64,000 nucleotides of DNA from IMG/VR virus record IMGVR_UViG_3300038312_000168, positions 1-64,000 of that record. One strand, 5' to 3'. The stretch is from a virus. The stretch's first letter is position 1; each line of letters starts with the position of its first letter. This document shows, piece after piece, positions 3,802-57,110 of the stretch. The notes beneath the pieces were generated by a model. It worked only from the letters and a program-made list of their open reading frames with translations, did no database searches and was not told the origin of the DNA. The position numbers and the translations under genes were made by a program.

Positions 3802-3813
3802 AGAGGTAAGAGA

Positions 3814-5274: not shown

Positions 5275-5320
5275 ACCCTTTAACTTTTTGAAGTTGTTAA
5301 GTTCATTACTTAAAAGGGTT
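5274..5320 (+). promoter_or_regulatory. intercistronic hairpin module 4
   Basis: Stem AACCCTTTAA/TTAAAAGGGTT (one bulge), 26-nt loop; followed by T-run, CCC-gaaa-GGG and SD GGTGAGG. Confidence 0.5.
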
Positions 5321-5345
5321 TTACCCGAAAGGGTGAGGTAAAACT

Positions 5346-5510: not shown

Positions 5511-5512
5511 TT

Positions 5513-5914
5513 ATGGATTATGAACTTTTAAACGAGATCAATGATAATGATGCTAAAGAGATGGAAGAGTATAGGATAGAAGAACCAGAAAGGGATAATC
5601 CTGTAATAGAGGAAGGATGTATCTTTGATGGCGCGAGGGGTATATACATATTCTATCTTGCTGTGCGTTATGCGATTGAAAATGGGTTTAATCCCTCCGA
5701 TGAATGGAAAGAACAAGTAAAAAGAGCACAAGAGAAAGGAGAAGATGAAGAGGATTATCTTACTCATAATTATGAATGGATATTTGACGAAATGGAGAAC
5801 GCCGAAGATTGGTTAAATGCTGAAATAGCAGATGATGAGCATTATTTTGGGACTGTCCTTGATGGAACGGATTGGGGATATTGGGAAGTAGAAGAGGATT
5901 GGTTATCTATTTAA
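5513..5914 (+). CDS. hypothetical acidic protein (133 aa)
   Basis: Track start 5507 is TTG; ATG at 5513 preceded by AGAGG. Confidence 0.6.
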   Translation: MDYELLNEINDNDAKEMEEYRIEEPERDNPVIEEGCIFDGARGIYIFYLAVRYAIENGFNPSDEWKEQVKRAQEKGEDEEDYLTHNYEWIFDEMENAEDWLNAEIADDEHYFGTVLDGTDWGYWEVEEDWLSI

Positions 5915-8560: not shown

Positions 8561-9183
8561 ATTGTTAGGTTATCCCTAACTATCACCATATCACCAAACA
8601 TACATGATATCTCACGATATGTATGTTGCTTATCTATCATGATCTATCATGGTTCGAGTTGCGGTAAATGGATATTCCCCGCAATTATGAGGAGATTAGA
8701 GTATTCGACAAATAGTCGATAATCCTTTGAGTATATCGAATGGATACCGCATAGATACGCAATGACGATACCAACATAGCGTCATTATCGTATCACCCTT
8801 CAGACTGCATAGAAAACAGGGCATAATGAGCAGGGATTAGAACGCTATACAATGAGGGATTGATGATAGACACAAGCAAAAATGAGATCAAGTTAATTCA
8901 GTTTTACTTTTACTCTGTCATACCCATATCACTACCCTATGAGACGTACATAGTGCGTCTACAATGCGCGCACTCACCTAGATGATATGCGAGTATCCCT
9001 ATGCTGATATGTGACAGTATAGGGTTACTGTGTGGCTATGTTGTTACCATCTCATGTATGAGATAGACCACCATTATTCACCAATGTTTGTGACCATGTA
9101 TACCTATGTGCATTGATGAACATATGTGAGCATTGATGTATTGATTCGTACATCTACGAAAAGTAGAGACCGGGGGTGCGGTT

Positions 9184-9217
9184 AGACACCTTCGGTTAAG
9201 TGTCTCAAAAATTTTTT
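9184..9217 (+). terminator. hairpin plus T-run in ORF-free region (terminator-like)
   Basis: AGACAC-cttcggttaa-GTGTCT (9184-9205) followed by caaaaaTTTTTT (T6 at 9212-9217); preceded by a G+C-rich stretch GAGACCGGGGGTGCGG. Confidence 0.3.
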
Positions 9218-9319
9218 ATAAAAAAATAACTAAATCTGGGTAAAAACCCCTAAATAAACCTATTTCTCAAAAAAGAGTTAAAACCCATTACTTCTCTATT
9301 CTTCAAAATTGCAACACTA

Positions 9320-9454
9320 TCAACAATACTCATAACGCTCTGCACATTCTGGATTTGAACACCGATACATCTTCATAATATAAACTTCTGTACCAATTTT
9401 AAACCCTTTCTTACCACAATAAACAATCAATGAACCACAACGTGAGCAATACAC
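9320..9454 (-). CDS. small zinc-ribbon protein (44 aa, below track cutoff)
   Basis: Open frame directly downstream of 9488 gene; CSRC ... CSNPEC cysteine pairs; only a GTG start (9454), SD AGGTGG is ~16 nt upstream, so weak. Confidence 0.3.
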   Translation of the reverse strand: MYCSRCGSLIVYCGKKGFKIGTEVYIMKMYRCSNPECAERYEYC

Positions 9455-9936: not shown

Positions 9937-10305
9937 CTACACCCAATACTCTTTTATAATCCCTATAATATCCTCATTTGTTATTTCATATTGAATCAAA
10001 TAGGACAATGTAGCATAGATACCTTTATTGGTAATCATATATTCATCTTTATCTCTAAACCGAAGCAATTCACATGATTCAAGCACAGAACCTTGATCAA
10101 CACCAACACAGTCCTTTATTATAAGTCTATGCATCAAATAGAAAAATGCCTCACCGCCCTTTTCTGTAAACATATATTTTCCATCGTTAGCCTTAATCAT
10201 GATTCTATGTTCAGCAAGGGTAGGAAGTAAACTGTTAACTTTACTATGAAATTCATGTTTATCATCCTCAAACTCCGTTTCAATAAACGTCTTAAATGTT
10301 ACCAT
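9937..10305 (-). CDS. tandem-repeat winged-helix-like protein, paralog 2 (122 aa)
   Basis: Track start 10326 is TTG; ATG at 10305. Paralog of 9488..9895. Confidence 0.6.
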   Translation of the reverse strand: MVTFKTFIETEFEDDKHEFHSKVNSLLPTLAEHRIMIKANDGKYMFTEKGGEAFFYLMHRLIIKDCVGVDQGSVLESCELLRFRDKDEYMITNKGIYATLSYLIQYEITNEDIIGIIKEYWV

Positions 10306-10438
10306 AACTAATACTTGTAACCCCAATCTATAAAAAGATTACTATTTGCATCTCTTTATAAAATTTTTTCCAAAAAAATTACAAAACATGGGTAAAAACC
10401 CATAAATTAAGCAATTAACCCAAAAAAAGAAGTAAAAA

Positions 10439-10849
10439 TTACTTACTCCACCATTCTACACAATATTTCCCATCTCTTCTTTCCCACATCGACGGATCAA
10501 ATCTAACCTCACATTTATAATCTTCAGCAAGTCTACAAACCTTATCAAAAACTTCATCAGGTGTAATTTCTCTACCAATCATAGACTGATAAAGAGTATC
10601 ATAATACACCTTATTTTCATTTTTATCAACAAATTCCTGTTTCACTTTCGCAAACCAAACACAATGTTCAGTTAGGTCAAAGTCAGCAGTAGCGTAACAA
10701 TTAACGGAGCGAATATCCTTGAAACACTTTGATAACTGTTCAACGTTCTCAACATACTTATTTAAATCGTTAATTACGTGTTTAACATCATAATTTAATG
10801 ATCCAAGCCCAAATAAAACATCTTTATGCAAAATAATCACCATAACCAT
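10439..10849 (-). CDS. hypothetical protein (136 aa)
   Basis: ORF track, ATG start. Confidence 0.55.
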   Translation of the reverse strand: MVMVIILHKDVLFGLGSLNYDVKHVINDLNKYVENVEQLSKCFKDIRSVNCYATADFDLTEHCVWFAKVKQEFVDKNENKVYYDTLYQSMIGREITPDEVFDKVCRLAEDYKCEVRFDPSMWERRDGKYCVEWWSK

Positions 10850-17044: not shown

Positions 17045-17117
17045 TGACAACGAAGGGATTTGAACCCTCACTTGACAGTTTTGGAGACTGCTGCACTTCC
17101 GATTATGCTACGTTGTC
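17045..17117 (-). tRNA. tRNA-Trp: tRNA-Trp(CCA)
   Basis: Acceptor GACAACG/CGUUGUC, D stem GCAU/GUGC, anticodon stem GCAGU/ACUGU with loop CUCCAAA, T arm GAGGG-UUCAAAU-CCCUU; no encoded CCA. Confidence 0.9.
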
Positions 17118-17120
17118 TAA

Positions 17121-17201
17121 TGTGTCAGACAGGGTTTGAACCTGTGATACCCTTCGGCAAAGGATTTTAAGTCCTCCGTGTTTCCGCTCCACCACTGACA
17201 C
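17121..17201 (-). tRNA. tRNA-Leu: tRNA-Leu(UAA), class II with long variable arm
   Basis: Acceptor GUGUCAG/CUGACAC, anticodon stem GAGGA/UCCUU with loop CUUAAAA, 14-nt variable arm, T arm ACAGG-UUCAAAC-CCUGU. Confidence 0.9.
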
Positions 17202-40309: not shown

Positions 40310-40906
40310 TTATTCTGGATGATAATAACGATACAGGTAATAACGGAGGGTATTTTCCACATTGAAGCAAATATTGTCAACAGAACCATTTGCATCCAGA
40401 ATGAAATATCGATGTTTTCCCTCTTTTGCAAGTTTTATATAATTGTCCTGAATCTTACTTAAACGCTGTATTTCCTCTGTCATGTTGTTTATCTTACGCC
40501 GTTTAGCATTACGTAAGGCGAACATCGATGGATTACCGTAAAGTAAGATGGTTATATCGGGAAAGAGTGTATTACCATCGAAGAAGCGCATAATCTCATC
40601 AGTGTCGCGCGAGAGGACCACACCATAACGCGCAATGATTTCATCCAGGTAAGGATCGGTAATTACAATCTTACCCTCTTCGAGTGCAGGAGTGATGAAT
40701 GAATCAATGTGGTCATAATGATCGAGCAGCGTAAGAAGTAATTGTTTTTCAGGGTTGTCCTTATGCTTCTTAATCAAATCACGCATATCTTCAGCGAATG
40801 GTTCTGCCGTGTAAACAATATCTTCAAAGTCAGTCAGATTTTCACGTAAATAGTTAAGGACAGTGGTTTTTCCACTTCCCTCAACACCTTCAATACTTAT
40901 AATCAT
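40310..40906 (-). CDS. tmk: thymidylate (dTMP) kinase (198 aa)
   Basis: MIISIEGVEGSGKTT P-loop typical of Tmk; ATG 40906 preceded by AGGTGG (track start 40921 lies within the SD). Confidence 0.8.
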   Translation of the reverse strand: MIISIEGVEGSGKTTVLNYLRENLTDFEDIVYTAEPFAEDMRDLIKKHKDNPEKQLLLTLLDHYDHIDSFITPALEEGKIVITDPYLDEIIARYGVVLSRDTDEIMRFFDGNTLFPDITILLYGNPSMFALRNAKRRKINNMTEEIQRLSKIQDNYIKLAKEGKHRYFILDANGSVDNICFNVENTLRYYLYRYYHPE

Positions 40907-40917
40907 TTTATACCACC

Positions 40918-41553
40918 TCATAAAAAGTTGAGTGCTTCAATAGTCTCTTTTGGGAGTTTAATCTTCAATGCACCATTTTTATAATCTGTAATCAAGTCAG
41001 AAAGTTTAGGATACGCTTCAAGTAACTTCTGTGCGCGTCTATCACCCACTCCAGGCAAGGACAAGTAAATGTCATAGAGTGGATTTGTACTTGACTTAAC
41101 TTTCTTATGCTTAACACTCTCTACTTTCTTACCCTTGCCTACCATTTCACGGATCTTAAAGATTGCATGGAATAATTGAGGCGCGGTATCAAATTGAATC
41201 ATCTTTACATTATACCTTGCTGCTACAGAACAGAGGGAACCAACAGTATGTGTGGTTTTCCATTGTTTAGCGTAAGGAATAAAGTAGAGACTCTTGAAAT
41301 TACCGTGTATGAAAAGGTAAGGTTCATCAAACTGTTCAAGGTTGGTAAGTTGAGTTTCTAATCTTCCATCGCGCACCGAATTGACAAAATCAGCAACAGA
41401 TTTACGTTCAATGACAATCTTCTTCTCACCATCAATAACCCAAGCGAAATCACCCGATTCCATATATTCAAAACGGACTTCAACATTTAATGTTTTTGCA
41501 ATGCGAGCAATCTTATTTTGAACAGTTTTGGGTTCTCTTGTATCTACAATCAA
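40918..41553 (-). CDS. xpf: XPF/Mus81-type ERCC4 nuclease with C-terminal HhH2 (211 aa)
   Basis: VDTREP, GDFAWVI, IERKSVADFVNSVRDGRLETQ (ERCC4 GDxn-ERKx3D signature) and LPGVGDRRAQKLLEAY (helix-hairpin-helix); TTG start. Confidence 0.85.
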   Translation of the reverse strand: MIVDTREPKTVQNKIARIAKTLNVEVRFEYMESGDFAWVIDGEKKIVIERKSVADFVNSVRDGRLETQLTNLEQFDEPYLFIHGNFKSLYFIPYAKQWKTTHTVGSLCSVAARYNVKMIQFDTAPQLFHAIFKIREMVGKGKKVESVKHKKVKSSTNPLYDIYLSLPGVGDRRAQKLLEAYPKLSDLITDYKNGALKIKLPKETIEALNFL

Positions 41554-42697: not shown

Positions 42698-43384
42698 TTA
42701 GAGGAAGTCATCTTGTGTGGTTTCATCATAAATCATGTCACATATGTAGGCAAATTCACAATAATTGCACAACCATGATGGTTTTGCTTCAAACTTCTTT
42801 TCTTCAATCTTCTTTACTGTATTGTCAAACTTACGTAACACGGATTTAATACGTTTCTGTTCCACATCTTCAATGAAAGAATCATCAGGATAACCAGTAA
42901 AGAATATGCCAACCTGATCAATAGTTATTCCAGTTGTTTTCTGCACTAGGTAGACATACAAGTGTAGTTCATCAAGATAATTCTTGTAATCACTTACACG
43001 ATACTTACCCGTCTTGTAATCAACCAGGATGTTCTTACCATCTTTCTCATAAATTGCATCAATGATTCCTACAAGATTCTTCTCTTCATCATACAATTTA
43101 CGTTCAGCGTAGGTAGCACGATCAAGACCAAACATGGAAAGAATGATGTAGAAGTTACCAATATGTGTCTTGTAGAAATCATCCTTCATTAAGAACTGCT
43201 CGTAGTATTCAAAGTCTGCTGCATTTTTATTGAAAGATTCAAATAGTTCATGCAGAGTGCTACCTTTCTTCGCTGCTTCATTTGAAACGCGGTCCTTACC
43301 ATAAATCGTGTAAGTCTCAATGTAGAACTTGCGAGGACACTTACGGTAAAGATACATTTTACTCTTACTCATGCGGAACTTCAA
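42698..43384 (-). CDS. cas4: Cas4-like PD-(D/E)xK nuclease with 4-Cys cluster (228 aa)
   Basis: YRKCPRKFY at N-terminus, IIDAIYE...LVDYKTGK core, C-terminal CNYCEFAYIC: the Cas4/DUF83 pattern; TTGA overlap with upstream stop, SD GGAGGT 7 nt upstream. Confidence 0.8.
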   Translation of the reverse strand: MKFRMSKSKMYLYRKCPRKFYIETYTIYGKDRVSNEAAKKGSTLHELFESFNKNAADFEYYEQFLMKDDFYKTHIGNFYIILSMFGLDRATYAERKLYDEEKNLVGIIDAIYEKDGKNILVDYKTGKYRVSDYKNYLDELHLYVYLVQKTTGITIDQVGIFFTGYPDDSFIEDVEQKRIKSVLRKFDNTVKKIEEKKFEAKPSWLCNYCEFAYICDMIYDETTQDDFL

Positions 43385-43708: not shown

Positions 43709-43903
43709 TTACCAACATCCATAGTCTGTTAAATCGATACATTCACCACAATTTTCACATTCCGCTTTATGAACACAACCAATTCCTGTTCCAATAATGT
43801 GTAAGTGAATCGTTAATTCATATTTATTATCATCAAAACAACGCTCATGTCGAGCGATAAACTGATTGAGTTGTGCAAGTTCATTTTCGTTTAGTTCTAA
43901 CAT
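43709..43903 (-). CDS. hypothetical Cys-rich protein (64 aa)
   Basis: ATG 43903 in TAATG overlap with RNR stop (track start is GTG); C-terminal CENCGEC..C. Confidence 0.5.
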   Translation of the reverse strand: MLELNENELAQLNQFIARHERCFDDNKYELTIHLHIIGTGIGCVHKAECENCGECIDLTDYGCW

Positions 43904-46900
43904 TATCCGCACCTACTGTATCCACACGCACAAGTCTTACAACCTTCAACCATACTTAAATGTTCACCACATTCAGGACAGATATTTGATTCAGTCTTTA
44001 TTTCTTCCTTACATGGAATAGAAATTGGTTCTGATTCTTTATCAGGAATCAGACTTTCAATTACTCGACCGATAACATCCGAGCATGATTTTCCATCACA
44101 ATTACCTTCAGAGAATTTCTTGTAAGCGACAGGACAAGTAACATTACGTAAAGTCTTGATTATATCCCAGGTAGGAACATTCCAACGCATTGAAAGAGAA
44201 ATCATCTGTCCCAATGCATCATTCATAGCGGTGCAACCACCTTTGTTGTTTATAATGCATTCATAGGGTTTACCATCTTTTTCTGCAACGGAAATGATAA
44301 GTTTACCACAACCTGAACGTCTCTTACTATTTGTAGCGGGAAGATCAGATGGGCGCTTAGGTAGGATTCTACCATCGGGGAGTGGTGTTGTAGGGGTGGA
44401 ATCTTTCTTGAGTTCCATTACAATATCATCTCTGCTACCTGTTACATAAATGGTAACTCCCTTACATCCTTTCTCATAAGCGTAAAGAATAGCACTTCTA
44501 ATATCGTCTTTAGTAGCGCCTGGAGGCATGTTAATTGTCTTACTGATTGCAGCATGACAATACTGTTGAAACGCTGCCTGCATGTCAATGTGTGACTTCC
44601 AATCGATGTCAAGAGCCGTCTTGAACACAGATTTAAACTCTTTAGGCAACCATGTAATATCTTGAATAGTCCCTGTTTCGTAAGCATGATTGATTACTTC
44701 CTGCTTCTTTTTGTCCCATTGTGAAACCTCAACATGTGATTCAATGTAATTATTCAGTTTTTCTTCAAAGACTGGATCAACCATCAGGTATCCTTTCTTT
44801 TTACCATCTACCCATGTATACCGCTTGTGAACCAGGGAATAAACAGGTTCAATACCATATGAGGTTTCAGAGAGTGTTGCAATACTTCCAGTGGGTGCTA
44901 TACATGTTGTAGTTGCATTACGTATGGGTATATCATGTAGGAACCAATCAGAACCTTCATATGCTGGAAATACACCAAGTTCTTTTGCAAGTTCTCTTGA
45001 TGTTAGAACAGACATATCATTAAGAATGCCCATAACCTTTTTTGCCTGATACAGTGCATCAGAACTATCGTAAGGAATACCCATCTTCATTAGCATGTGA
45101 TGGAATCCCATGTAACCTAATCCAATCTTACGAGTCTTTCTACTCGCTTCTGCAATCTCTTCAATAGGATATTTGTTAAGATCAATAATCTTATCAAGAA
45201 ACTCTGTTGAAAGTTCAATGGTATTTATTAAATCATTTTGCATTAATCCATTATTATTAACAAAGTTAGATAAATTTATACTGCCTAGATTACATGATTC
45301 GCCTGGTAATAGTGGTTGCTCTCCGCAGTTAGAGGCCAATATGCCGTTGAAAATGCCAGTATGGTTCTTAGGCTCGTTGAAACAGTAAACCTTGTCTACA
45401 ATTTCATTGTTCCGTTCAATAGATACAATTTTAATAAACCTTTTTGCATCTCTTTTATTAGTTGTTACAGTGGGGACTCTATATGTTTTAAACCCAAGAT
45501 CAACCAATTTTTTAACATTAGATGCAGGAATTGTAAGTCTATAACAATCAAGACAATAATATTCTTTTTGACCACCATTACCATCGGGCATTAATTTATA
45601 ATCAGATTTTTTCATCAAATTAACAGAAGTATTAATACCAAGTGTATCAAGCATATATTTTACATCCATTAAAAAATCTCTTTTAACAGATGAAATAGCG
45701 ATACTACCTTCACTTGTATTTTTACATCCATCACTGTCAACAATTCCTGCTAACCATTCTAATCTTGATTTAATTGTATATGAACAATTAGGAACAAACA
45801 ATTTTTCATAATCACCCTGTAATGTAACAAGAATTCTATCGTGATCATCACTTTGATTATAATTAACACGTTTTGCATTTAAATATTCTACTAAATCTTT
45901 TTTAATTCCATATAAATATATATACTTTATACCATTTGATTGACATTTATAACCATCACCACTAAAGAAACCATGTGTATATGCAAATTCAAGTTCTTTT
46001 TTACCCTCAATAACGGGGTAATCACACTTGATAAGTTTGTCACCTACTACTAAATCCTTTGCTTCTTTTTTAACAATTTTATTTTTATTACCTTTATAAC
46101 CATATTGTAAAACAAACTTATGATAAGGAGTACATTTTACTTTGTTACCATCACTGAATGTTACTTCCATAACCTCTTGATCGTATCCAGTAACACACGG
46201 AGTAACAACACTCCATTCAAACCCATTCCAGATAGTTGTTTCTTTATCTACACACTCATCAATGCGCTTATATCCTTCATTGGTAAGAATGAGTGTTTCA
46301 CCAACCAAACACGGATTGGTTGCTTCAATATTACCAAGATGTTTGCAAGTATTATCATCATTAATTGTATTGTAGAATAATACCCCTGGTTCACCTGTCT
46401 TGGAAATTCCATCTACAATCTTATCAAAAACTTCTTTCGCTCTGATTGTTTTGTAAACTTTACCATCGAAGTGAAGATTATACTCTTTATCATTCTTTAC
46501 AGCACTAATAAATTCATCATCAATCATTACAGAAATATTGAAGTTAGAAAGATCACCTTCAGTATTCTTACACGCAATGAACTTCTCAATATCTGGATGC
46601 CAAACAGGGAGAACACCCATATTCGCACCCCTTCTTTTAGATCCCTGAACCACAGCACCAGTAGCAGCATTAAACACTTTCATGAAAGAAATGGGGCCTG
46701 ATGCAACACCATCTGTTCCATTTACTTTGTCACCTTCAGGTCGAAGATTACCAAAGGAAAATCCTGTTCCACCTGCTGCCTTATGAATTAATGCGGCATT
46801 TTTAATTGCATCAAAAATACTTTCCATTGAATCATTTACAGGAATTACAAAACATGCAGAAAGTTGTCCTATTTCCGTTCCTGCATTCATAAGTGTAGGC

Positions 46901-47064
46901 GAATTAGGCACAAAATCTTTATTCACCATCATATCATAGTAAATCTCTCGTTCATCGTCCGTATTTCCTACATAGTCTGCAACTCTTCTACAGACATCTT
47001 CCCAGGACGATTCACCTTCACGGAAATAACGAGCAGCAAGAACTTCATTAACAATGTCACTCAT
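43903..47064 (-). CDS. nrdJ: class II (B12-dependent type) ribonucleotide reductase interrupted by an intein (1053 aa precursor)
   Basis: PNSPTLMNAG, LSACFV, GGTGFSFG.LRP, ASGPISFM, KRRGA, ...ATNP[C-intein-N]CGEQPL..ESCNLGSINL; C-terminal Zn-ribbon CPECG...CKTCACG. Confidence 0.9.
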   Translation of the reverse strand: MSDIVNEVLAARYFREGESSWEDVCRRVADYVGNTDDEREIYYDMMVNKDFVPNSPTLMNAGTEIGQLSACFVIPVNDSMESIFDAIKNAALIHKAAGGTGFSFGNLRPEGDKVNGTDGVASGPISFMKVFNAATGAVVQGSKRRGANMGVLPVWHPDIEKFIACKNTEGDLSNFNISVMIDDEFISAVKNDKEYNLHFDGKVYKTIRAKEVFDKIVDGISKTGEPGVLFYNTINDDNTCKHLGNIEATNPCLVGETLILTNEGYKRIDECVDKETTIWNGFEWSVVTPCVTGYDQEVMEVTFSDGNKVKCTPYHKFVLQYGYKGNKNKIVKKEAKDLVVGDKLIKCDYPVIEGKKELEFAYTHGFFSGDGYKCQSNGIKYIYLYGIKKDLVEYLNAKRVNYNQSDDHDRILVTLQGDYEKLFVPNCSYTIKSRLEWLAGIVDSDGCKNTSEGSIAISSVKRDFLMDVKYMLDTLGINTSVNLMKKSDYKLMPDGNGGQKEYYCLDCYRLTIPASNVKKLVDLGFKTYRVPTVTTNKRDAKRFIKIVSIERNNEIVDKVYCFNEPKNHTGIFNGILASNCGEQPLLPGESCNLGSINLSNFVNNNGLMQNDLINTIELSTEFLDKIIDLNKYPIEEIAEASRKTRKIGLGYMGFHHMLMKMGIPYDSSDALYQAKKVMGILNDMSVLTSRELAKELGVFPAYEGSDWFLHDIPIRNATTTCIAPTGSIATLSETSYGIEPVYSLVHKRYTWVDGKKKGYLMVDPVFEEKLNNYIESHVEVSQWDKKKQEVINHAYETGTIQDITWLPKEFKSVFKTALDIDWKSHIDMQAAFQQYCHAAISKTINMPPGATKDDIRSAILYAYEKGCKGVTIYVTGSRDDIVMELKKDSTPTTPLPDGRILPKRPSDLPATNSKRRSGCGKLIISVAEKDGKPYECIINNKGGCTAMNDALGQMISLSMRWNVPTWDIIKTLRNVTCPVAYKKFSEGNCDGKSCSDVIGRVIESLIPDKESEPISIPCKEEIKTESNICPECGEHLSMVEGCKTCACGYSRCG
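45328..46311 (-). mobile_element. intein (328 aa) with LAGLIDADG homing endonuclease domain in the RNR NPCGEQ active-site loop
   Basis: Begins Cys (CLVGETLIL; codon at 46309-46311), ends ...GILASN (45328-45330) followed by +1 Cys of CGEQ; two dodecapeptide motifs YTHGFFSGDGY and LEWLAGIVDSDGC. Confidence 0.9.
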
Positions 47065-47424: not shown

Positions 47425-47694
47425 TTATTCCACCTTCTCAAGTCTCATTACCATTTTCTCATACTCATAATACTTATTTGTCTTTTCAATAATACGTGTC
47501 TGTGCATTTTTAATTACGGGTTCATCCATAGCCATTGCAAGAATCTGTCCCGATTCATCGCGGATTACAAATGTAGGATTACCTGAAAGAAAATGAGAGA
47601 ATGTTGCCTTAACATACTGTTCATTCTGTTCTTGTCGTTTCCGTTCTTCATGCATTGCTGCAATCTGTTTTGAATTTTGGGGTTTGTAAACCAT
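47425..47694 (-). CDS. hypothetical protein (89 aa)
   Basis: ATG 47694 with GGAG 9 nt upstream (track start is TTG). Confidence 0.5.
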   Translation of the reverse strand: MVYKPQNSKQIAAMHEERKRQEQNEQYVKATFSHFLSGNPTFVIRDESGQILAMAMDEPVIKNAQTRIIEKTNKYYEYEKMVMRLEKVE

Positions 47695-47695
47695 C

Positions 47696-48361
47696 TTAAT
47701 CAACTCCTACAAGTCTTTCAATATCATTTTCATCTCGCGTTATATAAATGTGTGGAATTAGACTTACGTGTTGATAGCGTCCAATAGGTAATCCAAGTGC
47801 ATCTGCAATGTATTTCTGAAGATGCACAAGTCCAAACGCATTTTGACCGAAGGCAGCGCACATATCGTTGCTACGGAAGGTTACATTCATGCACAACTTT
47901 CCATCTATGATTACACATTGCACATGATTTAAACAGGGACAATTCTCCATATCAAAGTGTAGAGGTGGATTCCACAGAGACATAACCGCTTGACGGGAAG
48001 TAGGATGATCTCTAAGTTCATTGATTACGTAGGCAACCTGATTGAAATGGCTATAAACAAAATCATAACATTCCTCATCACCATACATATAATCAAACAT
48101 CAAATCATGATACGTGTAATCAAAATCTGCCTTAGTTCCATTAAGAATCTGATCTGCATACTGTTCTGCAAATAGTTTACCAAAAGGTGCTCGCTCACTT
48201 ACCATTGGTTCTGTAAACGGATTATCAATTACAATGCAAGAACCATCAATTTCAAGTGTCTTTTCCCCTTTCGTTGTAATACGCCCGTAACCTTTATTGT
48301 ATATTTCCTTTACAATAAGTTCATGTGCGTGTCCAATGCAATACGTATGAATCAGTTTCAT
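47696..48361 (-). CDS. thymidylate synthase (ThyA) family enzyme, short archaeal type (221 aa); TS versus dUMP hydroxymethylase unresolved
   Basis: RQAVMSLWNP, CPCLNHVQCVI (catalytic Cys), FRSNDMCAAFGQNAFG, PHIY: the ordered ThyA-family motifs. Confidence 0.75.
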   Translation of the reverse strand: MKLIHTYCIGHAHELIVKEIYNKGYGRITTKGEKTLEIDGSCIVIDNPFTEPMVSERAPFGKLFAEQYADQILNGTKADFDYTYHDLMFDYMYGDEECYDFVYSHFNQVAYVINELRDHPTSRQAVMSLWNPPLHFDMENCPCLNHVQCVIIDGKLCMNVTFRSNDMCAAFGQNAFGLVHLQKYIADALGLPIGRYQHVSLIPHIYITRDENDIERLVGVD

Positions 48362-48363: not shown

Positions 48364-49236
48364 TTACACCAACATCTGTTTCAAGTAAAAGTCAATCTCA
48401 CTCTGCATATAATTAAGCGATAAATTGTTGTTTAATCTACACGTAAACAATTCACTGTCTCTGTGTATCGTAAACATTCCTTCATCTCTCTCTACACGTT
48501 CCTTGCCTACACGTTTAATTCTGGTAGACAAATCAGCGTAGACACGAATGCACTTGATGTCATACACTTCACCGAAGTTCTGCATGAGGTAAATCAATCC
48601 ACGCTCATCAATTACATATGTGTTATAATCCAGCACATCCTTCTTCAAACAACAGTAACGATACCCACCAAACTCTGTGTAGGCAATCATATCATCGCGT
48701 GAGAAGGTATCAAACTCTTCTTTGGTTACAAAAGTATGTCCTGTCTCACCTGGATAACGTATAGGACGATCCGTGTAGGACTCCATCATCTTGATACCAT
48801 GCTCACGCTCAATATACTCTGCAATGGTTGTCTTACCACTTCCTGACTCGCCCACAATACAGATAATAAGGGGTTTACGATTTACCTTACGCATTACATG
48901 GTAGCGAATATCATTCCAACAAATAACCCTGTGTGAGTATTCCTTATCATCAATATAAATATCTGCACCAATCTTTCTACAATCATTACCATATTCCTCA
49001 ATGCGGTAACAAAGATTCTCATTGACATCATTGAACTTGATTTCATTATCAATGAGAAATTCAACCATTTCACGTTCTTCTCTCCCTTGACGACATGAAT
49101 TGATGATAATATCATGTCCCTCATCATATAGTTCATTGATTACCTCTTTAGCATTACGCTTCAGATAACCAATGTCAGGATACTTGTTTGTTACAATAGT
49201 CCCGTCAAAATCTACTGCAATAACTAATTTCTTCAT
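48364..49236 (-). CDS. fusion protein: HAD-family (deoxy)nucleotidase-like phosphatase + guanylate-kinase-like P-loop kinase (290 aa)
   Basis: N-terminus IAVDFDGTIV (DxDGT) ... ADIYIDD; C-terminus IVGESGSGKTT plus SYTDRPIRYPGETGHTFVTKEEF (GK signature s.TtR.pR.gE..G..Y.Fv..eeF); ATG 49236 in TAATG overlap. Confidence 0.7.
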   Translation of the reverse strand: MKKLVIAVDFDGTIVTNKYPDIGYLKRNAKEVINELYDEGHDIIINSCRQGREEREMVEFLIDNEIKFNDVNENLCYRIEEYGNDCRKIGADIYIDDKEYSHRVICWNDIRYHVMRKVNRKPLIICIVGESGSGKTTIAEYIEREHGIKMMESYTDRPIRYPGETGHTFVTKEEFDTFSRDDMIAYTEFGGYRYCCLKKDVLDYNTYVIDERGLIYLMQNFGEVYDIKCIRVYADLSTRIKRVGKERVERDEGMFTIHRDSELFTCRLNNNLSLNYMQSEIDFYLKQMLV

Positions 49237-49664
49237 TAAGTCACCACACATACAATAATAAATCCAATCATAAAACCAATAAGAATACAAACAATGTAAG
49301 AATAATTTTGATCTATTATATTACCAATAGTTCTTTCTTTGACTTGTTCATCAGTAATCAAAACTTCTTCCTCTTCTTCTTCCATATTCTCCAATTCTTC
49401 AATGATCATATCCACATCAATGAATCGTGCTTCTGGTTGTGGATTTACTTCTGCCATTGATTTAAGTGTAAAGAGAGAACGTGTAACAACAACAGCAAGT
49501 TCTTCATCCTCAAATGATGCAATATTCACTGCACCATTGACAAATCCATTAACATCATACATTCCTGTTATGTCATTGTAATGACACTCAAATCCACAGA
49601 AATCGAGGAAATTGTAAGGAGTGTAACATTTACACTCCTCATTGTAAATATCCAGGCAAATCAA
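49236..49664 (-). CDS. Cys-rich, acidic, C-terminally membrane-anchored protein (142 aa)
   Basis: TTG start 5-6 nt after GAAGGTG; N-terminal C..C.C...C..C, poly-Glu stretch, C-terminal TM (YIVCILIGFMIGFIIVCVV). Confidence 0.5.
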   Translation of the reverse strand: MICLDIYNEECKCYTPYNFLDFCGFECHYNDITGMYDVNGFVNGAVNIASFEDEELAVVVTRSLFTLKSMAEVNPQPEARFIDVDMIIEELENMEEEEEEVLITDEQVKERTIGNIIDQNYSYIVCILIGFMIGFIIVCVVT

Positions 49665-50555
49665 TTAAACACCTTCAATCTGAATATCCCTGATTCTCTG
49701 TTGATAATACTGGAAAATGTTTCTAGGTGCACAACAATTATGTTTCTTACATTCTTCATTAATATATTGCGCAACTAACGGCATTGCAACTTTAATATCA
49801 GTAAAGTCATTACCAATGTCTGTTCTTACCTTTTCTATTGCACCGTAAATTTCAGAATCAGGTAATGTAGGTAACTGAATCTTACCTATTTCTTCCATTC
49901 TAGGTATCTTTTCCAGAGAAGGAAGATCCTGTTTCTCTTTGAAATAAACAATACCCCTCTTAGTTCCTGCACCTTCACCACAATTCCAGGGCAATTCAGC
50001 CCAAACTTTACCTACAACACCCTCCATGCTGTTTTCTTTCGCCTTTGTAATCATCTCATCTTTAAATTCATACAGAGATTCAATTGTAGAAACATTGCAC
50101 GTTCCATACAATTCTACAACCGGAATATCAAAGTGATAACAGGTCTGATACACTTTGTTATAATGAAGGAATCTGTTTTGTTTTGCGCTCCAAATATCAA
50201 ACACTACAAAATCATAATCCTCATGCATCTCAATACGTGTAGGTGAACGTCCTTTCATTAACATTTCACCAAAAACAACTAATTCATCACCATAATCACG
50301 CTCATTTAGAATCATGTCACGGATTGCATCAACATGGGATGTCTGATTGAATCCACTGTAAAACATATCAGAGGCATTTGCTAGATTCCTACTGCGTAAA
50401 TGAATGTTATTTTCATCATTTAAACAGATTCCAAGGCAGGAACCATCTCTTTTTACTTGAAAAAAGATTTCCTGACCCAAAAGAATCTCAGGGTTAGGTT
50501 TCAGATTCGCAATCCTTTCAAGTTCTGGATACTTGATCTTGTCTATCTCAATCAT
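49665..50555 (-). CDS. ATP-dependent polynucleotide ligase, RNA-ligase-like motif I (296 aa)
   Basis: Nucleotidyltransferase motifs QVKRDGSC (I, KxDGS without the DNA-ligase Arg), VVFGEM (III), FVVFDI (IV), EGVVGK ... YFKEK (V). Confidence 0.6.
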   Translation of the reverse strand: MIEIDKIKYPELERIANLKPNPEILLGQEIFFQVKRDGSCLGICLNDENNIHLRSRNLANASDMFYSGFNQTSHVDAIRDMILNERDYGDELVVFGEMLMKGRSPTRIEMHEDYDFVVFDIWSAKQNRFLHYNKVYQTCYHFDIPVVELYGTCNVSTIESLYEFKDEMITKAKENSMEGVVGKVWAELPWNCGEGAGTKRGIVYFKEKQDLPSLEKIPRMEEIGKIQLPTLPDSEIYGAIEKVRTDIGNDFTDIKVAMPLVAQYINEECKKHNCCAPRNIFQYYQQRIRDIQIEGV

Positions 50556-50651
50556 CCTTTCACCTGCATAATTAGTTTTCAGTTTGATTATTTATGTCTT
50601 ATGTTTTGAACAGAAAAAAGAATAGTCGCTTTACACGATAACAATGTGCCT

Positions 50652-50788
50652 CTACAATCAAAAAATCATACCGGAATCATATCGTTTTCGTATGTTTCCA
50701 GACCCTATCTTTCTTTGGACGGGTGTTTATACCTTTGAAAAAGATAGGTGTCAGAAATGCACGTTTTACTCAAAGAATTGAAGAGATT
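50652..50788 (+). repeat. copy D of five-copy intergenic element
   Basis: CTACAATCAAAAAATC ... CCAGACCCTATCT ... TTTATACC ... CACGTTTTACTCAAAGAATTGAAGAGATT; ends 10 nt from polB stop; contains hairpin CCTATCTTT/AAAGATAGG. Confidence 0.8.
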
Positions 50789-50798
50789 TTATATTCCT

Positions 50799-53123
50799 CT
50801 ACCAGAAACGTTCTATTCCGTCTAATTCGTGTATATTCCATCCCATGCTCAAGAATATGTAATTGAACTTCTCACGTATCAACTTCTCTTCCATGCGCGC
50901 ATAATCTATAACGAATCCTTCAGGTATTGGTTGTTCATCGGTGAATGATATTGCATGTGTCTTAGGCAGTCCTGGTGGAACATCTTTAACATAGATATAT
51001 TTCATCTTCTCCATTTTGATATTACCATTGCAGTATTTATTGAAATAAATTGCACCATGAATGTGAATAGGCATGTTGGAAGTATATTCGTGAAAATCCT
51101 TTGATACACCTTTTGGAATACCTATTTCATAAGGAGAATAAACACCTGCAATGATCTTGTCCCTTACTTCTTTCACTAATGGAAATATCTCTTCCTTACC
51201 CTTTCCGGTAAGAATCATCTTGAATACATTACTTTGTAACTCTCTGATTACGGTAGGTGTATCACTACGCTTTGCCTCAAATCCTTTGATTTCAAGTTTG
51301 GGATGGTCGGATATATCAGCACCATCCTTGTAGACAATTAGACCGGCATAACGCTTCTTTACCGCATTGTCATATTCATCGCCTACAAAGAATACATTGC
51401 CATAAATCTTTTCAAATTCAATGAACATTTTGTTATAGGTTGAATCACCAAATTCTGATTCACAAAAGTAATCAAGTGAGTTATTAATGTAATCGATTAT
51501 TTCAATGCCCTCATCAATTACGTCCTTAGCATCCTCCTTTTTCAATTTAAACAGAATAGCGTCGGTGTCCCCGCCCACAATCTCATGTTCTCTTTCCTTT
51601 ACCTTTTCCTGCATCCACAAATTAGTTCTCCGTCCAAAGTAAGTAATAGATTTACCAATATCTCTTGTAAACAACCTGAAATGAGGAGCAAGCATCACTC
51701 CATACACTGAATTGAGTAGGAACTTACAAACAGTCTGAATAGTATCCCACATCTCGTAATCATGAGAACCAAGTTCAAATGTGTCACGCTTATTTTTAAA
51801 CTTTTGTCGCAAGTTCCAAAGATCCTCAACAACACGCGGAATGAAACCGCGCTTGTCTAAACTAAAGTAAACATCATCAACGGTAACATAATTGTTACAT
51901 TTTGTTACATCGGTAACAATCGTTTCTGGTGACATATTACACGTAAGAATCGCTGTAGGATACAAAGAGCGCACATCACCTACTGCTACATTCTGATGGA
52001 CTCCTACGGTTGGTGTAATGACAATAGCACCTGTAATCTTTGTGTAATCCTTCTGCTTACGAGTAGTGGGTAAGACAATACCATACTCCTTCGCCTTGAG
52101 TAAAAAGAAACAATCAAGCACCTTACTGTTGTAGAATACATCATACCAACTGCAAAAGGTAAAGCGACGAATAGTATCAAAATATTTGACAATGCCCTTT
52201 GACTCTTCGATCTTTACCATGAGGTAGACATCTTTGATATTATACTCGATGAACTTGTCAAGATTATTGCGCCAAAAGTCCTCAAACTTCTCTTGATGTT
52301 CAATTTTACCTGCACCCAATTCATAACGTGATATATAATCCAGGGAGTATGATTCCATTTCTTGTGTAGACAGTTTCTTGTAGCACACCATTAAATCTAA
52401 CCAAATCCTACAGCGCGGTTTGTCTACAATGTCACCATAACCCTTACCCATCTGTTTAATGGGAGACAACAAACGTGGATTAATCTTCAACGCTTTCATA
52501 CGATTAAATAGGTAAGGATAATCAAATCTATCACCATTCCAGGCAAGGAATAAATCAAAATCAAGTTGTTGCACCAATGCAAGGAATTTATTAAGCATTT
52601 CCTTTTCGGTAACAAACATAAAAACACGCGCTTCAACTTCATTACCATCGAATTGAATCTTACGAGTGTATTTGTCCTTACTGACTACTCCATCAGGTGC
52701 AACCGTAAAACAATAATAGAGATTACGGAAGTTGTCATAGGCAGCAATGGAAGTAATCATAGTGTCTGCCTTCGAGATATTGGGTATTCCATCCGTCTCA
52801 ATATCAAAAAAACATACCCTAATCACCTCACTTTCAATACCTTTCTGGTAGTAATTATCAATCAGGTATCTAATAGTAGGGGGCACATCACCTTCATACG
52901 TAAATTCATGCAGTTTTCTCGATGATTTGAAGTCCTTTTGATTAACGCATGTAATACGCTGTAATGTCTCTCCAAACAGAGAGTAGTAGGTTTCTCCTAC
53001 AATGTTCTGTCGAGGCACATAAAAATAGGGTTGAAAGCGATTGATACGTTGCTCATAACGCTCACCGTGTTCATCTCGACCACGAATGATAATAGAATCC
53101 CCTATTGACTCGGTTATAATCAT
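50799..53123 (-). CDS. polB: family B DNA polymerase (774 aa)
   Basis: Exo I FFDIETD, Exo II NGDRFDYPYL, Exo III YNIKDVYL; Pol A DVRSLYPTAI, Pol B KFLLNSVYG, Pol C GGDTDA, KKRYAG. Confidence 0.95.
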   Translation of the reverse strand: MIITESIGDSIIIRGRDEHGERYEQRINRFQPYFYVPRQNIVGETYYSLFGETLQRITCVNQKDFKSSRKLHEFTYEGDVPPTIRYLIDNYYQKGIESEVIRVCFFDIETDGIPNISKADTMITSIAAYDNFRNLYYCFTVAPDGVVSKDKYTRKIQFDGNEVEARVFMFVTEKEMLNKFLALVQQLDFDLFLAWNGDRFDYPYLFNRMKALKINPRLLSPIKQMGKGYGDIVDKPRCRIWLDLMVCYKKLSTQEMESYSLDYISRYELGAGKIEHQEKFEDFWRNNLDKFIEYNIKDVYLMVKIEESKGIVKYFDTIRRFTFCSWYDVFYNSKVLDCFFLLKAKEYGIVLPTTRKQKDYTKITGAIVITPTVGVHQNVAVGDVRSLYPTAILTCNMSPETIVTDVTKCNNYVTVDDVYFSLDKRGFIPRVVEDLWNLRQKFKNKRDTFELGSHDYEMWDTIQTVCKFLLNSVYGVMLAPHFRLFTRDIGKSITYFGRRTNLWMQEKVKEREHEIVGGDTDAILFKLKKEDAKDVIDEGIEIIDYINNSLDYFCESEFGDSTYNKMFIEFEKIYGNVFFVGDEYDNAVKKRYAGLIVYKDGADISDHPKLEIKGFEAKRSDTPTVIRELQSNVFKMILTGKGKEEIFPLVKEVRDKIIAGVYSPYEIGIPKGVSKDFHEYTSNMPIHIHGAIYFNKYCNGNIKMEKMKYIYVKDVPPGLPKTHAISFTDEQPIPEGFVIDYARMEEKLIREKFNYIFLSMGWNIHELDGIERFW

Positions 53124-54443: not shown

Positions 54444-55391
54444 TCACCAGAATGTATCCTTACCATAATCTACTTTGATATAATCAAGTATTTCGCCAAG
54501 ACCAAGTTGATTAATACAGAATTTCCATTGTGACGGATGAGTTCTCTTCATACGCTGGAATCTGTTTTCACCCTTAGTCATATGAACCCCAAACATACAG
54601 AACATACAACCCGTTCTCTGTTCTCCTGTGCAGATTAATTCACCATTCTTTTCAATAATATCACCATAAATCTTACTATATGGAATATTATTATCTTTCA
54701 GATAATGTAACACATCTTGTTCTAACCAGAATCCCATTGGTGTTGATTTTGGTGATTTAAGATCATATCCATTACAACCCTGTCTTAAATATGTCTGCAT
54801 CCTCATTCTACTTTCAGCAGCAATTTCACCTGTAAGTGGCACTCGTCCTGTTTCTTTAACATATTTCTTCATTGGCCCCTTCTTCATAACATCACAACAT
54901 TTATCAGATATTTTAAATGGTGCTTCAACTAGGTATCTCCATTTCTTAGAAAGAACCATTGAAGGACAATATTCACCCTTTTGATTCATACCTGTTAAAC
55001 GTAAGTTTCTTGATGCTACATTTTTTTCAGTTGGATTCTGTAAATCATTAATATAACGTGAAATACGCTTACTAATTACTGGATACCCATAAGTTTCAAT
55101 AACTTTCTTAAAATTCATTTCGGGCTTGAGCCATACAACATTATCAATAGACTTAACAAAATCTCTGATCTCTGGATATTCTAATCCAGTATCAACAAAT
55201 ACAGCAGGCACATTAGGATATTGACTTCTTACAATGTCTAAAAGAACGGTGGAATCTTTACCACCACTGAATGCAACATAAACATCACCATAATAGTGAT
55301 TATACCATTCCCTAATTCTTATTTCTGTTTTTCTAATTTTAAGTTCTAAGGGTAATGATTGCATCTGTTGTAATTCATACATCTCTAGCAT
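54444..55391 (-). CDS. PAPS-reductase-family PP-loop protein with C-terminal Cys cluster (315 aa)
   Basis: VAFSGGKDSTVLLDIV (PP-loop SGGxDS), VFVDTGLEYPEIRDF, C-terminal CTGEQRTGCMFCMFG. Confidence 0.8.
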   Translation of the reverse strand: MLEMYELQQMQSLPLELKIRKTEIRIREWYNHYYGDVYVAFSGGKDSTVLLDIVRSQYPNVPAVFVDTGLEYPEIRDFVKSIDNVVWLKPEMNFKKVIETYGYPVISKRISRYINDLQNPTEKNVASRNLRLTGMNQKGEYCPSMVLSKKWRYLVEAPFKISDKCCDVMKKGPMKKYVKETGRVPLTGEIAAESRMRMQTYLRQGCNGYDLKSPKSTPMGFWLEQDVLHYLKDNNIPYSKIYGDIIEKNGELICTGEQRTGCMFCMFGVHMTKGENRFQRMKRTHPSQWKFCINQLGLGEILDYIKVDYGKDTFW

Positions 55392-55945
55392 TATAACACC
55401 TTAGTCAAATGATACCGTGAAAGTGTTGCACCTGTCTGATGCTTGTATTTGGAAGTAGATTTCTCATTATATCCTACCCTACACGTTTCACCCTCAAAAA
55501 ATACTAACTGTGCAATCGGCATACCATTGTAAAGACGAATAGGACGATTATTTACATTGAAGAGTTCAAACGTAAGAGTTCCACCGAAACCTGCATCAAT
55601 CCAACCTCCAGTCTGATGAATGGTAAGACCCAGGCGAGCAAGAGATGATTTCCCTTCACATGCTGCTGCAATGTTTTTAGGTAAGGTAATAGTCTCTTGT
55701 GAAACAGCAAGCACAAACATTCCAGGTTGAATTGTAAAGGTATCTGCTTCAACTACTTCATGTCCGTAGAGAATTGTGTTGCGGTCATACGGATCAATCA
55801 TCTGCCCGTTGTTAATGTAATATTTAAACTGATTTGAGAGGTGTAAGTCATATGAATTGGGGTTTATACTCTCTTCATTGAAAGGGGTAATAATCAGGTT
55901 TCCATAGTCAATACACTGTTTAATCTGATAGTCTACCAGAATCAT
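55391..55945 (-). CDS. dcd: dCTP deaminase/dUTPase-fold enzyme (184 aa)
   Basis: INPNSYDLHL, EGKSSLARLGL, HQTGGWIDAGFGGTLTFELFN, PIAQLVF: Dcd family pattern. Confidence 0.88.
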   Translation of the reverse strand: MILVDYQIKQCIDYGNLIITPFNEESINPNSYDLHLSNQFKYYINNGQMIDPYDRNTILYGHEVVEADTFTIQPGMFVLAVSQETITLPKNIAAACEGKSSLARLGLTIHQTGGWIDAGFGGTLTFELFNVNNRPIRLYNGMPIAQLVFFEGETCRVGYNEKSTSKYKHQTGATLSRYHLTKVL

Positions 55946-56184
55946 TCTTTATCACTCTTATCGATGTTGTATTTGTTGAACTGACTGTAAGAATACAAAG
56001 GACACTGTAACTGCTCACACTCTACTCTACCATCTTCACAATATCCCTGACAATCGTAGCAATAAGCACTTATCGCTTCCTTGCGTGTGATATGTTTACC
56101 TTCAAGAAAATTAATAAGATTGGTTTTACCACTATAACTCTTACCATGTTTCTTGATGAGTTTAATGGTTGATTTGTTATCCAT
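55942..56184 (-). CDS. hypothetical Cys-rich protein (80 aa)
   Basis: CYDCQGYCEDGRVECEQLQC cluster; overlaps both neighbours. Confidence 0.5.
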   Translation of the reverse strand: MDNKSTIKLIKKHGKSYSGKTNLINFLEGKHITRKEAISAYCYDCQGYCEDGRVECEQLQCPLYSYSQFNKYNIDKSDKE

Positions 56185-57110
56185 TACGCACCTCTCTTAC
56201 CAAGAATACGCATGAGTTTGAAGGCCATGTTTGCAAAGGTAATCTCAGCATTAGCACCGTATACCATTCTGTAATCTGATTCTGCAATGATCTCAATGGC
56301 AGTAATCTTATCAGAGGCAGACAGTGTAGTATCATTCCACACTTTCAGGTAGATTTGGAATGTAATGCTCCGGTAATCAACCGTGTTACTATTCCACAGT
56401 TTACGTGCTTCGGTGATTTTCCTACCCTTAATTAACGTGTAAAGTTCATCTGCAACATTGATATTCTTCTTAGTGTCTAATTCACCAAGATTCTTGTAAA
56501 TATCAAGTGCCTTTACCATTGAACGAATATCAGGGTAATTAACATCGATGATCTCATTTAGACTTATATCGTCAATGGTAATGTTCTCTTCGGTGCAGAT
56601 GTGTCTTAATCGTGTAAGAATCTCATTACGTGCAGGTTTACCAAAAGATACAACCTTACACCTGGAACGGAGTGGTTCAATAATCTTACTAATTACATTA
56701 CACGTAAGGATGAATCGACAGCGAGAAGAATACTCCTCCATAATGTTACGAAGAATATTCTGTGCATCAGGTGTAAGTCCATCTGCTTCATCTAAATGCA
56801 CAATCTTAGGCACATCAGACTTGAATGATACAGTAGATGCAAATGCTTTTACCTTTTCACGCACCGTATCAATACCACGCTCATCAGACGCATTAAGATA
56901 AAGTCTATCAGCATCAAGTTCATTGATGATAATTTTAGCAAGTGTGGTCTTACCTGTTCCTGCACTTGACTCGAAAATCAGATTGGGAAGGGAAAAAGGA
57001 TTCTCCCTTACAACTTTGCGTAGTCCAGTAATTACAGTGGTATCATTACCAATGTAATCCTCAAACGTTTGTGGGCGATATTTCTCCACAAAAAGTTTGT
57101 TGGTAATCAT
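56184..57110 (-). CDS. rfc: replication factor C (clamp loader) small-subunit homolog (308 aa)
   Basis: FVEKYRPQTFEDYIGN, SAGTGKTT (Walker A), HLDEADGL (Walker B), EPLRSRC (SRC motif). Confidence 0.92.
   Translation of the reverse strand: MITNKLFVEKYRPQTFEDYIGNDTTVITGLRKVVRENPFSLPNLIFESSAGTGKTTLAKIIINELDADRLYLNASDERGIDTVREKVKAFASTVSFKSDVPKIVHLDEADGLTPDAQNILRNIMEEYSSRCRFILTCNVISKIIEPLRSRCKVVSFGKPARNEILTRLRHICTEENITIDDISLNEIIDVNYPDIRSMVKALDIYKNLGELDTKKNINVADELYTLIKGRKITEARKLWNSNTVDYRSITFQIYLKVWNDTTLSASDKITAIEIIAESDYRMVYGANAEITFANMAFKLMRILGKRGA

Follow-up and report, generated by a model that had tools for sequence, protein, structure and literature searches.

Phage T4 repairs tRNAs cut by a host anticodon nuclease with a pair of enzymes, the end-healing Pnkp and the RNA ligase Rnl1. 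In archaeal viruses, RNA ligases were noted earlier as the Rnl2-family genes of the halovirus HGTV-1 (PMC8651126). Here, we analyze a ligase gene and a nearby gene for a fusion of a HAD phosphatase and a P-loop kinase in the first 64,000 bases of the virus record IMGVR_UViG_3300038312_000168, hereafter the window. The full record is a complete genome of 69,364 bp with direct terminal repeats. To our knowledge, no archaeal-virus RNA ligase has been characterized so far. The original prediction, drawn from the letters of the sequence alone, took the two genes for a heal-and-seal pair that could serve, together with the virus's own tRNAs, as a counter-defense against tRNA-targeting host immunity. 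The tRNA genes are indeed present (Trp-CCA and Leu-TAA, at 17045-17201). Of this reading, the part on an RNA ligase is supported, and the part that makes the fusion the end-healing partner is not supported in the form proposed. We suggest two independent accessory genes, a stand-alone RNA-repair ligase and a phosphatase/kinase working at the level of nucleotides, and hold this explanation with about even confidence. The two genes and the open reading frame (ORF) between them are:

49665-50555, minus strand: enzyme of 296 amino acids assigned to the RNA-ligase clade (PF09414, motifs, AlphaFold2 (AF2) model, Foldseek)
49236-49664, minus strand: Cys-rich and acidic ORF of 142 amino acids (ORF and translation)
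48364-49236, minus strand: HAD-kinase fusion of 290 amino acids (family and PDB matches, alignment, AF2 model, Foldseek)

Related loci and contigs are labeled L plus a number, and virus records G plus a number.

The ligase among RNA ligases and archaeal viruses

Profile and fold comparisons support placing the ligase in the RNA-ligase clade and not in the DNA-ligase clade, because it carries PF09414 (RNA_ligase; 56.6 bits at a cut-off of 27, E 4.6e-15), because its family profile meets only RNA ligases among solved structures, because Foldseek searches of PDB with its model return RNA ligases at ranks 1-38 and DNA ligases from rank 39, and because an OB domain is lacking and the 69,364-bp genome contains no match to the DNA-ligase family PF01068. 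PF09414 is found in all 82 ligase homologues, and the window ligase also matches PHROG "RNA ligase" families. Among solved structures, the family profile reaches Rnl3 of Pyrococcus/Palaeococcus (1e-8), Naegleria Rnl5 (9e-6) and T4 Rnl2 (1e-4), with no true DNA ligase at E<=10. Two matched entries titled "DNA ligase" by their depositors are Rnl3-type proteins. Motif I reads K35-R-D-G-S-C and has no Arg at position +5, as had been noticed when KRDGS was set apart from the DNA-ligase motif. In an alignment of 37 family members, 34-88% identical to the window ligase, motifs I, Ia, III, IIIa, IV and V are invariant (K35xDGS, R56, FGE97, FD120, EGVVGK183 and K206xK208). K35, F119 and D120 bear the same residue numbers as in T4 Rnl2.

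The AF2 model of the ligase (pLDDT 92.5) combines a nucleotidyltransferase domain (~1-210) with a three-helix C-terminal domain (~230-296). The last ~65 residues are helical, and the model contains neither an OB domain nor motif VI. With Rnl2, Rnl5 and Rnl3, its best profile and fold matches, the ligase shares the nucleotidyltransferase fold and the full set of six motifs, and T4 Rnl2 likewise has a helical C-terminal module and no OB domain. Foldseek aligns the ligase to the Rnl2 structure 2hvr over about 350 columns, and T4 Rnl1 is aligned over only 207-213 columns (ranks 27, 28 and 32). Identity to Rnl2, Rnl3 and Rnl5 is only 13-19% though, and the window ligase lacks the N-terminal and dimerization domains of Rnl3 as well as the N-terminal domain of Rnl5. 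Its C-terminal domain is also its own, as a profile of the domain finds no relative among the solved RNA ligases in PDB, Rnl1 included. PF09511 is not among the Pfam matches at E<=0.01, which for the Rnl1 C-terminal domain is an absence of match. The only match of the C-terminal domain is marginal and concerns DNA polymerase III theta (HolE; E 0.005, ~38 residues). The C-terminal domain (window 49665-49870) has the pattern 'MP.iA..V..E...H' in common with theta, and chance or a similar small helical fold are both possible.

Relatives of the ligase in GenBank viruses are solely archaeal, comprising the tailed Methanofastidiosa virus vir521 (31% identity) and the Sulfolobus rudiviruses SIRV4-11 (22-26%). 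The one cellular match, in a scan of 185,579 species genomes that reaches fairly close relatives only, lies on a small contig of a Euryarchaeota metagenome-assembled genome from an anaerobic digester. The restriction of the family to archaeal viruses, plus this single genome, is a further difference from Rnl2, Rnl3 and Rnl5. The host of the window virus is probably an archaeon, likely a methanogen, since the viral thymidylate synthase (ThyA) is of the methanogen type and the ligase relatives are confined to archaeal viruses. Some ligase relatives lie near other RNA-repair genes. RtcB is found at most 0.8 kb from the ligase in L151 and L156, and RlaP, an RNA-ligase-associated 3'-end nucleotidyltransferase (bioRxiv 10.64898/2025.12.29.696909; PMC7824862), is 0.4 kb from the ligase in L155 and 3 kb from it in L021, and in L019 it is the next gene but one. 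RtcB and RlaP were seen three times within 1 kb of ~65 divergent ligase loci against ~0.2 expected, the expectation being a rough yardstick based on ~1.5 RtcB and RlaP genes per Mb in 26 virus records with HAD or GK homologues.

The ligase might alternatively join DNA, sealing Okazaki or recombination nicks despite its RNA-ligase-like sequence. It is the sole ligase in the 69-kb genome and lies directly downstream of the family B DNA polymerase (PolB), and a second ligase is likewise missing from G005, G007 and G008, which are small complete viruses. Homologues directly follow RecT at eight loci and a clamp loader at two, or are located beside PolB, and such neighbors could equally suggest a DNA role for the ligase. 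The missing OB domain and motif VI, the precedence of RNA ligases in both sequence and fold matches and the association with RtcB and RlaP argue against DNA joining. Distant relatives also coexist with DNA ligases. The ligase-bearing G013 and G014 encode separate strong PF01068 ligases elsewhere (E 7e-39 and E 2e-26, respectively), and the ligase homologue is therefore not their DNA ligase. In G016, an extra PF01068 match of 41.7 bits is located in a gene distinct from its PF09414 ligase.

The ligase is furthermore cleanly missing from near-identical genomes with the same PolB. Contig L003 is homologous to the window from PolB to 50559 (95% identity), which includes the spacer between PolB and ligase, and homology resumes at 49664 (93%). 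The 894-bp ligase ORF (window 49665-50558) is replaced by 3 nt (L003 9570-9572), an ORF-precise absence after which the ribosome-binding site of the ligase now serves the acidic ORF of 142 amino acids. L009 is also without the ligase and has ~260 bp of unrelated sequence at the ligase site, and its record G002 (93% complete) contains no ligase anywhere in a search run with a positive control. The ligase is a dispensable single-ORF plug-in cassette. Loss of an essential replication enzyme in such a manner is unlikely, and a non-essential counter-defense gene fits better. The absence of an OB domain and of PF01068, the separate ligases of G013 and G014 and the ORF-precise absence in L003 led us to reject a replicative DNA ligase as the leading explanation, and the corresponding caveat of the original prediction is unlikely. 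DNA joining in replication or recombination is, in our assessment, decidedly improbable.

We infer that the protein belongs with the ATP-dependent RNA ligases of the Rnl2/Rnl3/Rnl5 clade, among which its three-helix C-terminal domain sets it apart. It most likely adenylylates itself on K35 and would seal RNA breaks with 3'-OH and 5'-phosphate ends, the likely targets being tRNA or rRNA cut by the host. The enzyme would act alone or with host end-healing enzymes, and in some relatives beside RtcB or RlaP. The family combines a private C-terminal domain with a range spanning methanogen-associated tailed viruses and Sulfolobus rudiviruses, and with the behavior of a single-ORF cassette that is sometimes accompanied by RtcB or RlaP. 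The private domain, the archaeal-virus range and the cassette behavior together fit the profile of a counter-defense gene, and this profile points to archaeal RNA-cutting immunity that leaves ligatable ends. A distant ligase homologue in L025 (9028-10558) is split into two parts (9028-9375 and 9977-10558) by an ORF of 172 amino acids, possibly an insertion of the intron or intein type. Across the ligase loci as a whole, LAGLIDADG_3 domains occur in neighboring proteins.

The phosphatase-kinase fusion and its family

The fusion was called as an ORF at 48364-49290. We place the true start at the ATG at 49236, which yields 290 amino acids, because all full-length homologues are ~290 amino acids long and begin with MKKL. 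This ATG overlaps the stop of the upstream ORF of 142 amino acids (TAATG). With the start moved, the earlier description of a phosphatase followed by a kinase near the ligase is borne out, with the one ORF of 142 amino acids in between. The phosphatase spans residues 1-120 and the kinase residues 121-290 (AF2 pLDDT 92.5, pTM 0.82). Catalytic motifs are conserved in both halves, namely DxDxT, K88 and DD in the phosphatase and the GxxGxGKT P-loop and LID Arg in the kinase.

The HAD domain is of the capless BT0820 type with motifs I-IV intact (DxDxT, S/T47, K88 and DD96-97). The nearest solved structure is that of BT0820 itself (PDB 2OBB; NF046079; phrog_1238, Bacteroides), matched at E 5.4e-11, or 1.5e-30 with a profile, and at a TM-score of 0.83. 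The score against the BT0820 family model NF046079 is 83.6, under the equivalog cut-off of 165. No paper on the BT0820 HAD family was found in the literature collection searched. The HAD-IIIA model TIGR01662 matches at E 1.6e-5 with 25 bits at a cut-off of 44.6. Neither of the Pfam models for PNK3P and HAD_SAK (Swiss-army-knife) matches the fusion at E<=0.01, and the HAD profile reaches Pnkp1 (4xrp) at E 0.045 only, with T4 and mouse PNKP unmatched.

The kinase half carries a guanylate-kinase-type signature, SYTDRPIRYPGETGHTF, which the original prediction had entered as a caveat favoring a nucleotide-kinase role. The caveat holds. The fold is that of a complete guanylate kinase (GK), with a four-stranded subdomain for binding nucleoside monophosphates (NMPs), the P-loop, the LID arginines and S-x-T-x-R-x-x-R. 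The 50 top Foldseek matches in PDB are guanylate kinases and 2obb, with TM-scores to GKs of 0.6-0.72 and no PNKP structure among them. In BFVD, viral GMPKs and 5'-nucleotidases come first and PNKP-labeled entries appear from rank 31. The full GK fold, P-loop, LID arginines and S-x-T-x-R-x-x-R are in common with Gmk and with phage 'GMPK' (phrog_1815). The fusion differs from Gmk in the attached phosphatase, in a score of 30.1 against TIGR03263 (cut-off 160.45) and at the position of the guanine-reading Glu, which is Glu69 in yeast numbering. This position is an invariant Ala185 in the fusion family, and YGT has become YCC. The residues binding the phosphate of GMP are kept in the family alignment (S153, T155, R157, R160 and Y194). 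AAA_33 matches the fusion with 14 bits in the P-loop only, and the Asp of SYTDRP, a possible mimic of the PNK general base, is replaced by T, S or N in part of the family. Judged by alignment and model, the domain appears unlike PNK and closer to NMP-type kinases, with a substrate other than a guanine nucleotide.

The fusion resembles PNKP at the superfamily level only. The order of phosphatase and then kinase and the DxDGT nucleophile motif of the HAD domain are as in mammalian PNKP, which differs in having an FHA domain and a kinase of another family. Compared to T4 Pnkp, the domain order is reversed, the kinase has the GK fold and not that of PNK/AAA_33, and the HAD domain is of the BT0820 type.

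Phages of both domains contain more than 370 clusters of HAD-GK fusions, and we know of no biochemical characterization of such a fusion. Its neighbors include PolB, Pol III alpha, a clamp loader and DnaB. Stand-alone HAD homologues of Enterococcus phages are found by ribonucleotide reductase (RNR), deoxynucleoside kinase, NrdH and thymidylate synthase, and also by NadR and nicotinamide mononucleotide (NMN) transporters. The homologue of the hydroxymethyluracil (hmU) phage SP8 is located two genes from a dUMP hydroxymethylase, and that of Kuttervirus by a dCMP deaminase. In crAss-like phages, the HAD domain is found by a phosphoribosyltransferase (PRTase) and ThyX and also adjoins a PNK-type AAA_33 kinase. 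Most of the HAD and fusion contexts are replication or nucleotide metabolism. We infer that this member of a widespread phage family, with the guanine-reading Glu lost and the NMP-phosphate site kept, most likely removes and adds phosphates on mononucleotides and would thereby condition the deoxynucleoside triphosphate pool within an RNR-ThyA-PolB operon.

The fusion might instead work on a sugar phosphate or another non-nucleotide, for example in a PhnN-like step from ribose-1,5-bisphosphate to phosphoribosyl pyrophosphate for phosphoribosyltransferases or NAD salvage, or on recombination DNA ends, in each case unrelated to the ligase. The PhnN model TIGR02322 matches the fusion at E 3e-4, and one fusion homologue bears the JGI label PhnN. 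The lost guanine-binding Glu, the PRTase of crAss-like phages, the NadR and NMN transporter genes of Enterococcus phages and an SbcD-like nuclease after the fusion in L064 and L065 are consistent with such substrates. GK models outscore PhnN though, the fold matches are all GMP kinases, and no PRTase or NAD genes are among the window genes searched. We consider a role of this kind quite unlikely.

Several observations on the fusion family stand apart from the question of substrate. In L074 (1630-7436), a fusion 46% identical to that of the window has a family B polymerase on one side and an AdoMetDC-like gene on the other, as in the window. The association of PolB, fusion and AdoMetDC-like gene recurs in this distinct virus contig, where the PolB counterpart at the corresponding position matches PF00136 and PF03104. 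In L066 (5750-6004), L073 (5477-5755) and L076 (5684-6004), the fusion is preceded by a gene for Cpn10 (GroES-like), either immediately or with one small ORF in between. The genes of 407-411 amino acids after the fusion in L064 and L065 were considered as ligases and are SbcD/Mre11-like metallophosphoesterases (phrog_284). A gene of 223 amino acids beside the HAD homologue of SP8 was considered as a GK-like kinase and has no hidden Markov model or Pfam match.

Joint and separate occurrence of ligase and fusion

Ligase and fusion are joined in a single, tightly coupled operon in the window, and likewise in 15 of 15 metagenome loci with a ligase at least 87% identical to that of the window. Across 80 metagenome ligase loci, the full fusion is found solely beside ligases of at least this identity. 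The two genes separate in both directions inside the same virus lineage. The fusion occurs without the ligase in L003 and L009/G002, with flanking DNA 82-95% identical to the window, as well as in a Carboxylicivirga prophage, a Pol III alpha phage and others. The ligase occurs without the fusion in four complete genomes (G005, G007, G008 and G010; positive control run), and a PNK-type AAA_33 kinase is found in none of 13 ligase-bearing records. In L092, with a ligase 64% identical, the order is PolB, ligase and ThyA, and the trace of the fusion is a HAD remnant of 83 amino acids with no DxDxT nucleophile motif and no kinase. The expected fusion site there (3757-5532), ahead of the reductase, is occupied by three unrelated genes of 147, 266 and 177 amino acids, of which the last is membrane-like. 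A PF09414 ligase is missing from 24 of 26 viral records that contain HAD or GK homologues, and in the other two it is at least 12 kb off. The genes are not a fixed pair, because the fusion is kept without the ligase in L003 and G002 and the ligase is kept with a dead HAD in L092.

In a heal-and-seal pair, the HAD domain would remove the 3'-phosphate, the GK-fold kinase would phosphorylate the 5'-OH and the ligase would seal, as a counter-defense of the T4 Pnkp and Rnl kind against tRNA-cutting immunity. An RNA-clade ligase near a HAD-phosphatase/P-loop-kinase protein and viral tRNA genes are in common with the T4 pair of Pnkp and Rnl1. The shared operon of the window and all 15 loci with close ligases, the domain order of mammalian PNKP and a capless, HAD-IIIA-like phosphatase (the TIGR01662 match) are in line with such a pair, as are the PNK-type kinase adjoining the HAD domain in crAss-like phages and the RNA-repair neighbors described below. 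Unlike the T4 pair, the window genes do not co-vary, and the C-terminal tRNA-specificity domain of Rnl1 is unmatched in the ligase. Both the full GK fold with its NMP-phosphate site and the variable Asp of SYTDRP argue against end healing, and so does the absence of PNKP from the top PDB fold matches and of PNK3P and SAK-type HAD domains from the Pfam matches. The free separation of the genes, from the fusion persisting in L003 and G002 to the four complete ligase-bearing genomes without it and the missing PNK-type kinases, points the same way. The predicted role of the fusion as a PNKP-type healing partner is not supported, and we regard the heal-and-seal pair as unlikely.

Several points weigh against two independent accessory genes, beyond the replication and recombination neighbors of the ligase. 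A phosphatase and a kinase acting on the same mononucleotide would be futile, and end healing is the classical role of such fusions. Capless HADs frequently have polymers as substrates. A phosphatase-kinase fusion makes most sense on the two ends of one polymer. The virus already has thymidylate kinase (Tmk), dCTP deaminase, ThyA and RNR, with no obvious gap for a GK-like kinase, which is not required for the dTMP step because a dedicated Tmk is present. The fusion overlaps the start of RlaP in L066, and RtcB is found 4 kb from the fusion in L065. HAD homologues are located 4.7 kb from RlaP in G020 and 1.5 kb from RtcB in G037. Listeria phage P100 has the order RNA ligase, gp154 and HAD, with RtcB and a metallophosphoesterase close by. 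In our judgment, the proximity of HAD or fusion homologues to RNA-repair genes is more frequent than expected by chance. Phage RNA-repair and nucleotide genes commonly co-occupy "early" regions, and proximity is thus weak evidence for either side. We also know of no biochemistry for the ligase or fusion family.

The P100 genes gp155 to gp153 resemble the window in comprising a PF09414 ligase, one small gene and a BT0820-type HAD. They differ in a HAD without a kinase domain, in an unrelated middle gene and in the nearby RtcB, NADAR and metallophosphoesterase. A conserved three-gene cassette of ligase, middle gene and HAD common to the window and P100 was considered and rejected, as the middle genes are unrelated; the window ORF of 142 amino acids shows no homology to gp154. 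The P100 region (L058, record 110722-121066) encodes RtcB (gp160), NADAR (gp158), the PF09414 ligase (gp155), the BT0820-type HAD (gp153) and a calcineurin-like phosphoesterase (gp151). The HAD gp153 is annotated as 'phosphoheptose isomerase', a label that looks wrong.

The fusion could also represent a new end-healing class, built on the GK fold and convergent with PNKP, that is a facultative partner of the RNA ligase, of RlaP (L066), of RtcB (L065) or of the ligase and RtcB of P100. We think such a class rather unlikely. If it were real, the window would hold a genuine archaeal-virus RNA heal-and-seal module. Deciding between a nucleotide-pool and an end-healing role of the HAD-GK fusion would annotate hundreds of phage genes.

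Operon surroundings and the route to dTTP

The genes and spacer surrounding the ligase and fusion are:

50799-53123, minus strand: PolB, upstream neighbor of the ligase (ORF; collinear homologue in relatives)
50556-50798, minus strand: spacer of 243 nt between PolB and ligase; the ribosome-binding site of the ligase, GGTGA, precedes the ATG by 7 nt
47696-48361, minus strand: archaeal (methanogen-type) ThyA, directly downstream of the fusion (TIGR03283, PF00303)
47425-47703, minus strand: ORF of 92 amino acids
47070-47441, minus strand: AdoMetDC-like protein
43903-47064, minus strand: RNR with intein
40310-40921, minus strand: canonical Tmk (PF02223, E 3.6e-27, 90.7 bits)
55391-55945, minus strand: dCTP deaminase (PF22769)
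40918-41553: ERCC4 nuclease
42698-43384: PD-(D/E)XK nuclease
56184-57110: RFC-like clamp loader

RNR, dCTP deaminase, ThyA and Tmk together give the virus a complete de novo route to dTTP. ThyA scores 167.6 bits against TIGR03283 (cut-off 174.55) and also matches PF00303. A thymine-replacement module, in which the fusion would be a dTMPase and a hydroxymethyl-dUMP kinase, was an attractive candidate with precedents in SP8, ViI-like and PBS-type phages. The candidate is weakened by the canonical Tmk, the dCTP deaminase and the archaeal-type ThyA. Thymine replacement in the window virus is unlikely, because a canonical Tmk and an archaeal-type ThyA are present. The pyrimidine pool of thymine-replacing phages (PBS1 Dtm, hmU) is handled by a phosphatase and an NMP kinase next to a ThyA-family enzyme (PMC12697855; PMC8989533). 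PBS1 Dtm belongs to PF06941, a HAD family other than that of the fusion.

A tight operon extends on the minus strand from PolB through the ligase, the ORF of 142 amino acids, the fusion, ThyA, the ORF of 92 amino acids and the AdoMetDC-like gene to RNR. The TAA of the ligase abuts the TTG of the ORF of 142 amino acids (TAA/TTG), the TAATG overlap leads into the fusion, and TAAaaATG leads into ThyA. The protein of 142 amino acids is Cys-rich at its N-terminus and hydrophobic in a C-terminal segment, and it contains a run of Glu; its ORF is translationally coupled at both ends. Pfam and family searches found no match for the protein. The ORF is present in all close relatives, whether the ligase is there or not.

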